Origin: a bacterium
GTDB lineage: Bacteria > Muiribacteriota > UBA9980
Length of the DNA stretch: 51,918 bases
Direction of reading: 5' to 3'
Assembly: GCA_029571125.1 (NCBI GenBank)
Contig: JAKPTH010000325.1
Coordinates: 1-51,918, forward strand
Shown in pieces: positions 31,810 through 33,345 of the stretch. The notes beneath the pieces were generated by a model. That model did no database searches and was not told where the DNA came from. It was given only the letters and a program-made list of their open reading frames with translations. The stretch's first letter is position 1, and the number at the start of each line of letters is the position of its first letter. A program made the position numbers and the translations under genes.

Positions 31810-33345
31810 ATGAAAAAAATATGTCTCAGCTGGATCGGAACACACGATCTGAATTCGATAGCGCACGACACTAAATACGGCGACGGCAGCGGCCCGATAA
31901 TAGCGCTGCTGGAATCGCCGCACGCGGACGATTTCGACGAGCTGCATCTTCTGTACAACTTCGGCCAGCCGCTTGAAAAGCATAAAGACGAATATCGCAG
32001 GCAGATAAGCAAAAAATACGCGAAAAATAAAACCGTGGTTTTCCACGAGCACGAGCTCAATCCGACCGACTATAACCGCATTTACGAGATAACCACCGGC
32101 ATCATGAAATCGCTGCAGAAAAAGTACTCTAATAAAAAAATCAAATGGCATTTCCATACGAGCCCCGGCACCGGCCAGATGAACGCTATCTGGGTGCTTC
32201 TTTCTAAAACGGCGTATCCGGCGACGCTTTATCAGTCGCATTACGAAATCGGCTCGAAAAAGCAGATCGTCAAGACGATAGACCTCGAGTTCAACATCGA
32301 CGCCGAATATATTCCAGAGGTAACCGCCAGGGCGCGCGAGAAAATATTAAAAAACATACACTCTGAAAAGCAGTACGGCGAGATCATATACCGGAGCGAT
32401 ATCATGGAATCGCTGCTTTACAAAACCCGCAAACTCGCCGCGCACAATGTTTCAGTATTGATCACGGGCGAGACCGGCACCGGCAAGGAACTTCTGGCGA
32501 AAGCCATACACGCGGCGTCATTAAGGAAAGGCAAAAAAATGCTGACGCTCAACTGCGCCGCAATACAGGAAACCACAGCCAACGCCACGCTCTTCGGCTG
32601 GTCGAAGGGCGCGTGGACCGGCGCCTGCGGCGAGGGCAGCGGCTATTTTCTCGAATGCAGCGGCGGCACTATCTTTCTTGACGAGATCGGCGAGCTCAGC
32701 CTGGAAACGCAGACAAAATTGCTGCGCGCGATCCAGGAAGGCGAAGTTCAGCGGGTGGGCGACGGACGCGTCTCTAAAGTCGATGTGCGGATAATAGCCG
32801 CCACGCATAAAAATCTGCTTGAACTCGTCAAGAGCGGAAAGTTCAGAGAGGACCTTTATTACCGGCTGAATGTATTCGCCATCGAGCTTCCGCCGCTCAG
32901 AAAACGAGGCGACGACATAACGCTTCTGGCCGAGAAATTCCTGAAGGCAATAAACGATAAAAACGACGAAATACCCGGCTACGTCATAAAAAAATTATCG
33001 GCCAGCGCAAGGCAACTGCTTGTCAACTACCCGTGGCCGGGCAACGTGCGCGAACTTTACAACACTCTGCAGCGCGTGTGCCTGTGGGCCGACTCATCTA
33101 TAATAACCGCCGAAGAACTGAAAAATTACTTCACTCACGGCGCGCAGACCGAAGCCGCCGGACCCGATCACGACTTTTTATTTCCGGTCGACCTGGACGC
33201 GATCACGGTCGGCCTCAGAAAAAAATACATTCAAAAAGCGCTCGAAAAATGCGGCGGCAACAAGAGCGAAACCGCCAGAATGCTCGGCTATAAAAACTAC
33301 CAGACGCTCGCGCACGAAATGAAACGCTCAGGCATAGGCAGTTAG
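31810..33345 (+). CDS. Sigma-54-dependent transcriptional activator with an RtcR-like (CARF-type) N-terminal sensor domain
   Basis: AAA+ core is VLITGETGTGKELLAKAIH, GWSKGAWTGA (GAFTGA variant), GGTIFLDEIGEL, FREDLYYRLNV. C-terminal Fis-type HTH is NKSETARMLGYKNYQTLAHEMKR. The N-terminal ~185 aa (MKKICLSWIGTHD...WHFHTSPGTGQMNAIWVLLSKTAYPATLYQS) resemble the RtcR N-terminal domain as I recall it (ITTGTHVAQICWFLL...LIQS). Confidence 0.75.
   Translation: MKKICLSWIGTHDLNSIAHDTKYGDGSGPIIALLESPHADDFDELHLLYNFGQPLEKHKDEYRRQISKKYAKNKTVVFHEHELNPTDYNRIYEITTGIMKSLQKKYSNKKIKWHFHTSPGTGQMNAIWVLLSKTAYPATLYQSHYEIGSKKQIVKTIDLEFNIDAEYIPEVTARAREKILKNIHSEKQYGEIIYRSDIMESLLYKTRKLAAHNVSVLITGETGTGKELLAKAIHAASLRKGKKMLTLNCAAIQETTANATLFGWSKGAWTGACGEGSGYFLECSGGTIFLDEIGELSLETQTKLLRAIQEGEVQRVGDGRVSKVDVRIIAATHKNLLELVKSGKFREDLYYRLNVFAIELPPLRKRGDDITLLAEKFLKAINDKNDEIPGYVIKKLSASARQLLVNYPWPGNVRELYNTLQRVCLWADSSIITAEELKNYFTHGAQTEAAGPDHDFLFPVDLDAITVGLRKKYIQKALEKCGGNKSETARMLGYKNYQTLAHEMKRSGIGS

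Follow-up and report, generated by a model that had tools for sequence, protein, structure and literature searches.

The gene at positions 31810-33345 (forward strand) of contig JAKPTH010000325.1, a stretch of 51,918 nucleotides that is called the window here in its full length, encodes an RtcR-like bacterial enhancer-binding protein (bEBP). Judging by its sequence, the protein is a complete activator with a CARF sensor domain, a sigma-54 AAA+ domain and a helix-turn-helix (HTH) domain, and its sigma-54 contact loop reads GAWTGA. We consider it fairly probable, although far from certain, that this protein is a ligand-gated sigma-54 activator from a branch of the RtcR-like CARF-AAA+-HTH family that does not serve rtcBA, and that it drives three promoters located in its vicinity. 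The regulator is composed as follows:

31810-33345, forward strand: RtcR-like bEBP, 511 amino acids, intact open reading frame (ORF).
31810-32289, forward strand: CARF-like domain, residues ~1-160, from profiles and an AlphaFold2 model.
Residues 162-184: linker, of low confidence in the AlphaFold2 model.
32383-32886: sigma-54 AAA+ domain, residues 192-359 (Pfam Sigma54_activat, PF00158, E 1.7e-62).
Residues 364-449: AAA lid (Pfam AAA_lid_14).
33220-33291: Fis-type HTH, residues 471-494 (Pfam HTH_8).

The AAA+ and HTH portion is that of a standard bEBP, as an earlier note on this DNA had assumed. In addition to the Pfam matches for the AAA+ domain, the lid and the HTH, the Walker A motif (GETGTGKE), the Walker B motif (DE) and the arginines of the ATPase are invariant among 49 homologues. 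The sigma-54 contact loop reads GAWTGA (residues 267-272; 32608-32625) instead of the canonical GAFTGA, and the consensus of the 49 homologues is identical. Foldseek searches with the full-length model returned AAA+ bEBPs only (E ~1e-31 to 1e-25). Pfam is silent on residues 1-190, and the sensor is therefore not a REC, GAF, PAS or V4R domain, which had also been the opinion of the note. In the AlphaFold2 model, made with the same homologues, residues 1-160 have predicted local distance difference test (pLDDT) values of 83-96. Strands are found at residues 2-8, 44-50, 75-81, 111-116, 138-146 and 151-157, with helices between them and a terminal beta-hairpin, and the order of strands and helices is as expected of a Rossmann-like fold. 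Two N-terminal motifs are conserved in the homologue alignment: strand 1 is followed by SWIGxxD, and strand 4 by HxSPGT.

Kinship of the N-terminal domain to RtcR is indicated by several comparisons. The PADLOC profile PDLC01995 ('RtcR_PspF2--CARF_AAA_HTH') matches residues 3-509 with 510.5 bits (E 1.4e-153; profile positions 2-480 of 481); the meaning of 'RtcR_PspF2' is taken from the label itself and from Makarova et al. 2014 (PMC4012209). The PADLOC CARF1 profile matches residues 68-188 (E 1e-6). NCBIfam RtcR (NF038308) aligns with residues 2-495, whereas the other top bEBP models begin at residue 147 at the earliest. A profile of 30 N-terminal sequences aligns with residues 28-160 of E. 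coli RtcR (hhalign 97.3%, E 2.6e-11; compared with RtcR residues 1-200). In BLASTP the regulator and E. coli RtcR are 31% identical over 382 amino acids, in an alignment that starts at residue 76, within the CARF domain, with HFHTSPGTGQMNAIWVLLSKTAY-PATLYQS in the regulator against IHITTGTHVAQICWFLLAEARYLPARLIQS in E. coli RtcR. Among the N-terminal domains of the family, 20 of 30 match Pfam RtcR (PF06956) and 17 of 30 match Cas_Csm6_CARF. The domain of the window is itself too divergent to match either of them; the profile scan proposed in the earlier note came out negative for PF06956 and positive for CARF1, with PF06956 recovered at the level of the family. Searches against the sequences in PDB added little: phmmer with the N-terminal domain gave no match, the N-terminal profile gave marginal matches only (DUF1887 CARF-nuclease chains with E 0.32 among them), and no RtcR CARF structure was found there. 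Taken by its sequence, the N-terminal domain is homologous to the RtcR-type divergent CARF domain, and the resemblance pointed out in the note is borne out by PADLOC, NCBIfam, hhalign and the Pfam matches of the family. The NF038308 equivalog score is 305 bits, which is below the cut-off of 650, and as had been stated before, the window has neither rtcA nor rtcB among the large ORFs scanned with Pfam. We therefore call the protein RtcR-like and do not regard it as an orthologue of RtcR. No RtcA or RtcB appears either in those neighbourhoods of relatives that have gene or Pfam annotation.

A family of this kind has been described previously. Makarova et al. 2014 defined RtcR-like proteins in which a CARF domain is combined with an NtrC-like ATPase and an HTH; they are not linked to Rtc, often lie by restriction-modification (R-M) systems, and were proposed to sense either RNA bearing a 2',3'-cyclic phosphate or phage nucleotides (PMC4012209). 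Bell et al. 2024 found RtcR homologues heading superoperons (CoCoNuT, type I R-M, Druantia III), with bacteriophage exclusion (BREX) systems named in the abstract, and proposed a ligand of 2',3'-cyclic-phosphate RNA together with a feedback loop via HEPN RNases (PMC11090510). The locus is thus a further member of the described RtcR-like family not linked to rtcBA, and the idea itself is not new; the earlier note had called it undescribed, which does not hold, since the family and the ligand logic were given in PMC4012209 and extended to BREX superoperons in PMC11090510. What is known of the switch comes from RtcR proper. Its ligand, 5' tRNA halves with a 2',3'-cyclic phosphate, binds the CARF domain and causes oligomerisation (PMC7790460). 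The CARF domain acts as a repressor, so that RtcR deprived of it activates constitutively, and RtcA and RtcB are needed as well (PMC7790460, PMC5175333, PMC9650030). Our literature searches did not find experimental work on non-Rtc RtcR-like regulators.

Canonical CARF domains bind cyclic oligoadenylates (cOA). The regulator could accordingly respond to a cyclic oligonucleotide, either cOA or a product of the type found in cyclic oligonucleotide-based antiphage signalling systems (CBASS), made by a cyclase encoded elsewhere. This would agree with the Csm6 CARF matches of the family, and in one related locus (L022, 1508-3671) the regulator directly follows cas6b. Against it, no Cas10, CD-NTase or other cyclase was found among the ORFs of the window or in the relatives with annotation. 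In vitro, oligoadenylates failed to activate RtcR in a study that used a modelled CARF domain (PMC9650030). Furthermore, nucleotide-binding CARF domains are marked by a basic residue following strand 4, which the RtcR family lacks (PMC4012209), and the corresponding segment of the window regulator is HTSPGTGQM. We give this explanation very little credence.

In the favoured reading, a ligand-gated activator with local targets, these targets are three units in which an enhancer, or upstream activating sequence (UAS), precedes a sigma-54 promoter:

11081-11121, forward strand: UAS of unit 1, ATATACAAAAATATTT-N9-AAATATTTTTGTATAT, an inverted repeat of 16 nt without mismatch.
11229-11244, forward strand: -24/-12 element of unit 1, TGGCATaacacTTGCT, upstream of a gene for a clostripain-family (C11) protease.
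15646-15682, forward strand: UAS of unit 2, two AAAAA(T/A)ATTTGTATA boxes 19 bp apart, left arm TATAAAAATATT.
15812-15827, forward strand: -24/-12 element of unit 2, cGGCACgctaaATGCT, upstream of a gene for a tetratricopeptide repeat (TPR) protein.
33394-33434, forward strand: UAS of unit 3, inverted repeat ATACATAAAAATATTT-N9-AAATATTTTTGTATAT, 88% complementary.
33538-33553, forward strand: -24/-12 element of unit 3, cGGCATgcaaaTTGCA, upstream of a gene for an HExxH protein.

The window contains five matches to a strict -24/-12 pattern, YGGCAY-N5-WTGCW (11229, 15812, 33538, 39283 and 41446), where 0.21 would be expected, and none of 100 shuffles reached five. The first three sites have a dyad enhancer of the general form TATACAAAAATATTT-N9-AAATATTTTTGTATA 125-150 bp upstream. 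The word ATWTTTGTATA, with at most one mismatch, is found 10 times where 3.0 are expected (0 of 100 shuffles reached 10), and 7 of the 10 are in the three units. These counts and the inverted repeats agree with the three UAS/sigma-54 units listed in the earlier note. The UAS of unit 3 begins 49-55 bp past the stop codon of the regulator, in line with the 55 bp given there. Unit 3 has a leader of ~245 nt before the HExxH gene (33554-33806), which is ~77% identical to the closest related locus, L001 (12410-12695). Rfam and tRNA scans of the window were empty; the conserved leader is therefore one without a known RNA family.

Some further details of the promoters were noticed. A box containing GCGGCCGC lies just 3' of the -12 element in unit 2 (15848-15863), in unit 3 and in L001 (12420-12432). 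In unit 3 the -24/-12 element is flanked by an 18-nt inverted repeat (33520-33537 and 33554-33571), which could be an operator or a leader structure. The strict match at 41446-41461 is located 212 bp upstream of a CheA-like gene (41673), and the match at 39283 is inside a gene for another bEBP and may be due to chance.

Comparison with related loci shows which parts of this arrangement are kept. The N-terminal domain alone, used as a query for homologues, gave one protein, and the family was collected with the full-length query; a search for related loci with a 10-sequence N-terminal alignment gave 11 loci in each collection. Full-length homologues form a close group (79-88% identity) and a wider family (35-56%). 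The nearest named relatives are proteins from metagenome-assembled genomes (MAGs) of Candidatus Wallbacteria, and the source organism itself is an uncultured Wallbacteria-like MAG. Gene order around the regulator in the close group is as follows:

L001 (regulator 88% identical, the closest relative): pglX, pglZ, brxL, EEP, serpin, regulator, RelB/YafQ, UAS/promoter, 133-residue ORF, HExxH.
L004: thrS, aldo-keto reductase, regulator, UAS/promoter, 180-residue ORF, HExxH, Fic, UAS/promoter, C11, brxE-A-B-C.
L012: regulator, UAS/promoter, HExxH, C11.
L027: thrS, EEP, regulator, UAS/promoter, C11, HExxH, with no BREX up to the contig end.
L028 (contig ends within the regulator, whose 266 available residues are 88% identical): aldo-keto reductase, M78 remnant, unit-1 promoter, 23-residue C11 remnant, Schlafen/AlbA_2 gene, EEP, serpin, regulator.
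L029: EEP, regulator, promoter, HExxH.

In ten units from seven loci (the window, L001, L004, L012, L027, L028 and L029) invariance is confined to the UAS block and GGCA-N-TGC, and the ~100 bp between UAS and -24/-12 element have diverged. The UAS and the -24/-12 element are co-conserved with the regulator and with the same targets, C11 and HExxH, despite the rearranged gene order. In L012 and L013 both outer half-sites have changed from TATACA...TGTATA to CACACA...TGTGTG, and dyad symmetry is therefore kept. The HTH of orthologues with TGTATA-ending and TGTGTG-ending sites differs by one R-to-K exchange outside the recognition helix, which gives no usable covariation. As the note had suggested, the three units are the likely targets, since regulator, UAS/promoter, C11 and HExxH genes are kept together in rearranged loci. 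The comparative evidence that the regulator would work through these enhancers is good, though indirect. Strict -24/-12 sites are also present beside the regulator gene in more distant members with 40-55% identity (L010, L018, L034, L035, L036 and L037), often 5-35 nt past the stop codon. Taken together, the loci amount to 344 kb of non-redundant sequence and contain 24 strict matches, where 2.6 would be expected at equal base frequencies.

The bEBP gene with the internal -24/-12 match (37376-41098) encodes 1240 amino acids with REC, three PAS, GAF, AAA+ and HTH domains. It was considered as the cognate activator of the units and rejected, as it is absent from the corresponding region of L001, where the unit persists.

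The genes downstream of the three promoters are the following:

11287-13941, forward strand: C11 protease, 884 amino acids from the corrected start, predicted secreted, signal-peptide-like N-terminus.
14017-15567, forward strand: trypsin/HtrA-like serine protease, predicted secreted, with an HtrA/DegP-type trypsin domain and a zinc ribbon, no PDZ.
15903-17000, forward strand: TPR protein, target of unit 2, directly upstream of brxA, signal-peptide-like N-terminus.
33807-34745, forward strand: orphan HExxH protein, 312 amino acids, no signal peptide, HEAVH with a conserved Glu ~20 residues on.

Two secreted proteases, a TPR protein and an HExxH protein had been named before as products of the units, and this list stands except for the start of the C11 gene. 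The longest ORF called for this gene would include the promoter of unit 1, and the start is therefore moved from 11185 to the ATG at 11287, a start with GGGGG as ribosome-binding site from which a signal-peptide-like sequence is read. The C11 protein has a long N-terminal region, the clostripain-family domain being at residues 516-909 of the 918-residue ORF as first called, and it is 63% identical to the sigma-54-driven C11 protein of L004. The trypsin-like gene is probably co-transcribed with the C11 gene. All three proteins, trypsin-like, C11 and TPR, have signal-peptide-like N-termini. When the target proteins were scanned with PADLOC and NCBIfam, the matches were generic ones to proteases, the trypsin domain and TPR, and none was to a specific family.

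The HExxH protein is, going by its motif, a probable minigluzincin-like metallopeptidase; its single match is a weak one, to the minigluzincin proabylysin (E 0.05). Its family is very small: 5.8 billion proteins yielded 7 clusters, and 1.84 billion yielded 15 representatives at E <=1e-3. The protein is found only in this lineage, where copies in relatives are 54-88% identical, and its gene is beside the regulator in all five contigs with readable context (the window, L001, L004, L012 and L027). A small coiled-coil-like ORF between promoter and HExxH gene, of 133 residues in L001 and 180 in L004 (~31% identical), is deleted in the window.

On these grounds the following mechanism can be proposed. 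By analogy with RtcR, the CARF domain would be inhibitory and would keep the AAA+ domain inactive until a ligand is bound. The regulator would then oligomerise on the TATACAAAAATATTT-N9-AAATATTTTTGTATA dyads 125-150 bp upstream of the three -24/-12 promoters, and would use ATP to open them. The regulon would comprise the predicted secreted C11 and HtrA-like proteases, the secreted TPR protein and the cytoplasmic orphan HExxH metallopeptidase-like protein. We infer that it is this regulator, rather than another bEBP, that binds the three predicted enhancers. As the signal we consider most likely a species of RNA or nucleotide that ends in a 2',3'-cyclic phosphate and arises from infection or from the activity of an RNase toxin.

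Several points weigh against this proposal. Functional data for the GAWTGA variant of the loop were not found in our literature search. Residues 1-190 of the regulator have no Pfam match at all, PF06956 RtcR included, and Pfam scans of the window's 32 large ORFs (52 kb) found no RtcB and no RtcA, the cyclase type that could make 2',3'-cyclic phosphate ends. The enrichment of the UAS word is partly compositional, as both the UAS and the intergenic DNA around it are AT-rich. Other bEBPs encoded in the genome could use the three promoters. Secreted proteases are an unusual output for a CARF sensor and have no mechanistic tie to RNA damage or phage. Finally, it is doubtful whether cleavage by PIN nucleases leaves 2',3'-cyclic phosphate ends.

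The nature of the targets allows another explanation, in which the regulon is one of housekeeping or stress, concerned with envelope and extracellular proteolysis and responding to a metabolic nucleotide or to RNA turnover, while BREX has landed in a hotspot at thrS. The targets are predicted secreted proteases and a TPR protein, and the PADLOC matches are generic (trypsin domain) only. The module stands beside thrS and an aldo-keto reductase in the window, L004, L027 and L028, which is core-genome-like behaviour, and some relatives encode a protease inhibitor next to the regulator, a serpin (L001, L028) or an alpha-2-macroglobulin (L007). We regard this explanation as unlikely, because neighbours in the family are overwhelmingly genes of conflict and defence: R-M with UvrD, BREX, STAND, HEPN/MNT, TerB-tubulin-vWA, Cas6b and Schlafen-like. 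L007 has UvrD and several N6 methylases near the regulator, L010 and L025 have HEPN/MNT pairs near the homologue, and L024 has TerB, a tubulin-like protein and a vWA protein. Association with defence has also been reported for the family by others (PMC4012209, PMC11090510).

It is important to consider BREX separately, as the cassette sits between units 1-2 and the regulator:

17431-31185, forward strand: type 1 BREX cassette with brxA, brxB, brxC, pglX, a 71-residue ORF and PIN gene, pglZ and brxL.
17325-17353: sigma-70-like promoter of brxA, TTGACA-17-TATATT, extended -10 TG, 11 of 12 positions.
25975-26570: 71-residue antitoxin-like ORF and PIN gene (PIN 26187-26570), between pglX and pglZ.
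29110-31185: BrxL, with a PLD-like MIT_C C-terminus (PF16565, residues 539-685) and no other domain reported after the ATPase.

The regulator could be chiefly an inducible activator of BREX, in the manner of a defence superoperon, with the protease genes being accessory. In the window, L001 and L004, BREX and the regulator are less than 10 kb apart, with BREX at differing positions relative to the regulon genes, and BREX is among the RtcR-headed superoperons of Bell et al. 2024 (PMC11090510). The TPR gene of unit 2 is just upstream of brxA; no terminator-like site is predicted between them, and read-through from unit 2 is therefore possible. In the wider family, L018 (a Wallbacteria MAG, 50% identity; 11539-20525) has a sigma-54 promoter 5 nt after the stop codon, followed on the same strand by an SF1 helicase gene, a 258-residue ORF and brxA-brxB-brxC-pglX, so that this paralogous member may well drive a BREX array; the helicase carries a zinc ribbon. 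In L036 (1767-9663) the promoter is followed by genes for an nSTAND3 NTPase and two BrxD-like ATPases. In the window, however, a near-consensus promoter of the sigma-70 type precedes brxA, and the interval 17000-17431 upstream of the gene contains no -24/-12 match. The flanks of the island and the regulator are as in the window in L028, where a Schlafen/AlbA_2-type gene replaces BREX, and L027 is without BREX up to the contig end. In addition, the conserved targets are the C11 and HExxH genes and not brx genes. Looked at as a dedicated BREX regulator, an analogue of BrxR, the protein falls short both in co-occurrence (L027, L028) and in the type of brxA promoter. We therefore find this role quite unlikely, and a necessary link with BREX is not supported. 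BREX is read as an optional occupant because of the arrangements in L027 and L028 and the sigma-70-like promoter of brxA. It probably entered, as one optional insert, a variable island that lies next to thrS and within the regulon, and is probably not itself sigma-54 dependent, as far as the sequence tells. The architecture of BrxL in L001 is the same, with MIT_C at the C-terminus. Between the TPR gene and the brxA promoter there is a short ORF or remnant of ~47 amino acids (MAEGGVNPFAGEWIGNW...; 17060-17217).

The PIN gene embedded in the BREX cassette had been put forward as the source of the ligand. According to this explanation the VapC-like toxin cleaves tRNA, the fragments bind the CARF domain, and the protease regulon is turned on. 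There is a precedent, since VapC of Salmonella LT2 induces rtcBA via RtcR in E. coli (PMC5175333); the statement that VapC toxins induce the Rtc regulon in enterobacteria is confirmed to this extent. Toxins of the RNase type also recur by the family (PIN in the window, YafQ and HepT in L001, HEPN/MNT in L010 and L025), and BrnT-like toxins adjoin RtcR-associated loci (PMC11090510). The closest relative argues otherwise: L001 keeps the 71-residue antitoxin-like ORF (~80% identity) between pglX and pglZ but has no PIN gene. PIN is therefore not a conserved partner, and the chain from PIN to CARF is without comparative support. Toxin-antitoxin pairs are common in any defence island. Moreover, the ligand of RtcR needs a 2',3'-cyclic phosphate that is supplied with the help of RtcA (PMC7790460), and the window has no RtcA. 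Altogether this source of the signal appears very improbable.

Returning to the regulator as a non-Rtc activator of its three local promoters, its place among known systems can be described as follows. It shares with the described non-Rtc RtcR-like family the full-length profile match, the three-domain layout, the absence of rtcBA nearby, the defence context including BREX, the adjacent sigma-54 promoter and the same proposed logic from CARF sensing to sigma-54. In the published superoperons the regulator is at the 5' end, while here it is at the 3' end of the BREX gene array; restriction genes are the targets there, whereas the predicted conserved targets here encode secreted proteases, the TPR protein and the orphan HExxH protein. 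The enhancer sequence and the three-promoter regulon can be read from the DNA of the window, for which we found no report in this family. RtcR of E. coli and Salmonella (rtcBA or rsr-yrlBA-rtcBA) has a homologous divergent CARF domain, AAA+ domain and HTH, and the strand-4 segments are similar (HITTGTHVAQ in E. coli RtcR, HxSPGTxQM in the window regulator). Presumably the window regulator also has the RtcR-style switch, in which CARF represses the ATPase until a ligand binds. The two differ in the loop (GAFTGA in E. coli RtcR, GAWTGA here) and in the regulon (rtcBA in the former), identity being ~31%, and the RtcA and RtcB that bind the CARF domain of RtcR and are required for its activation have no counterpart in the window. 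PspF, NtrC1, ZraR and NorR resemble the regulator in the AAA+ core and Fis-type HTH (Foldseek) and in dyad enhancers ~100-150 bp upstream of -24/-12 elements; the sensor of the window regulator is CARF and not REC, GAF, PAS or V4R, and PspF is without any sensor domain. In Csa3-type proteins, in which CARF is combined with a winged HTH, CARF is likewise coupled to transcription and not to a nuclease. Csa3 acts directly through its winged HTH on sigma-70-type or archaeal promoters and receives cOA from Cas10, whereas the window regulator works, as predicted, through a sigma-54 AAA+ motor and is accompanied neither by a cyclase gene nor by a CRISPR locus.

Two further features of the window adjoin the regulon:

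31276-31758, forward strand: EEP (Exo_endo_phos) remnant, 160-residue ORF with an in-frame internal deletion (residues 1-100 and 251-323 kept).
10252-11014: HTH_31 gene and 114-residue M78/ImmA-like gene, just upstream of unit 1, with weak PADLOC matches to capH and capP.

Relatives encode an intact membrane-anchored EEP protein of 323 residues. Its gene immediately precedes the regulator in L027 and L029, while in L001 and L028 a serpin gene stands between the two; the window lacks this serpin gene. Of the M78 gene, L028 retains the last 21 codons only.

Based on these results, the locus has the following meaning for the RtcR-like family. CARF/sigma-54 activators of this kind have been predicted for more than 10 years to be regulators of defence islands. 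The present locus is a compact test case, with one regulator, a 41-bp dyad enhancer, three promoters and a regulon assigned by comparison, and it is distinguished by the readable enhancer, the three-promoter regulon of proteases and HExxH protein, the 3'-end position of the regulator and the family-wide GAWTGA loop. It could help to address what ligand a non-Rtc RtcR-type CARF domain binds, and whether CARF controls secreted proteases as opposed to nucleases. If the output is only stress-induced envelope proteolysis, the system would be an ordinary one; if the output affects phage, it would represent a new type of CARF effector. It is conceivable, though improbable in our opinion, that an intracellular CARF sensor of infection-derived RNA damage which controls, through sigma-54, secreted proteases (C11, HtrA-like), a TPR protein and a cytoplasmic metallopeptidase forms an inducible, non-nucleolytic second layer of defence together with BREX. 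If this is true, the proteases would remodel the cell surface or its surroundings, for example by shaving phage receptors or by processing a secreted factor, and such a layer would be balanced by the serpin or macroglobulin inhibitors that are encoded nearby in relatives.

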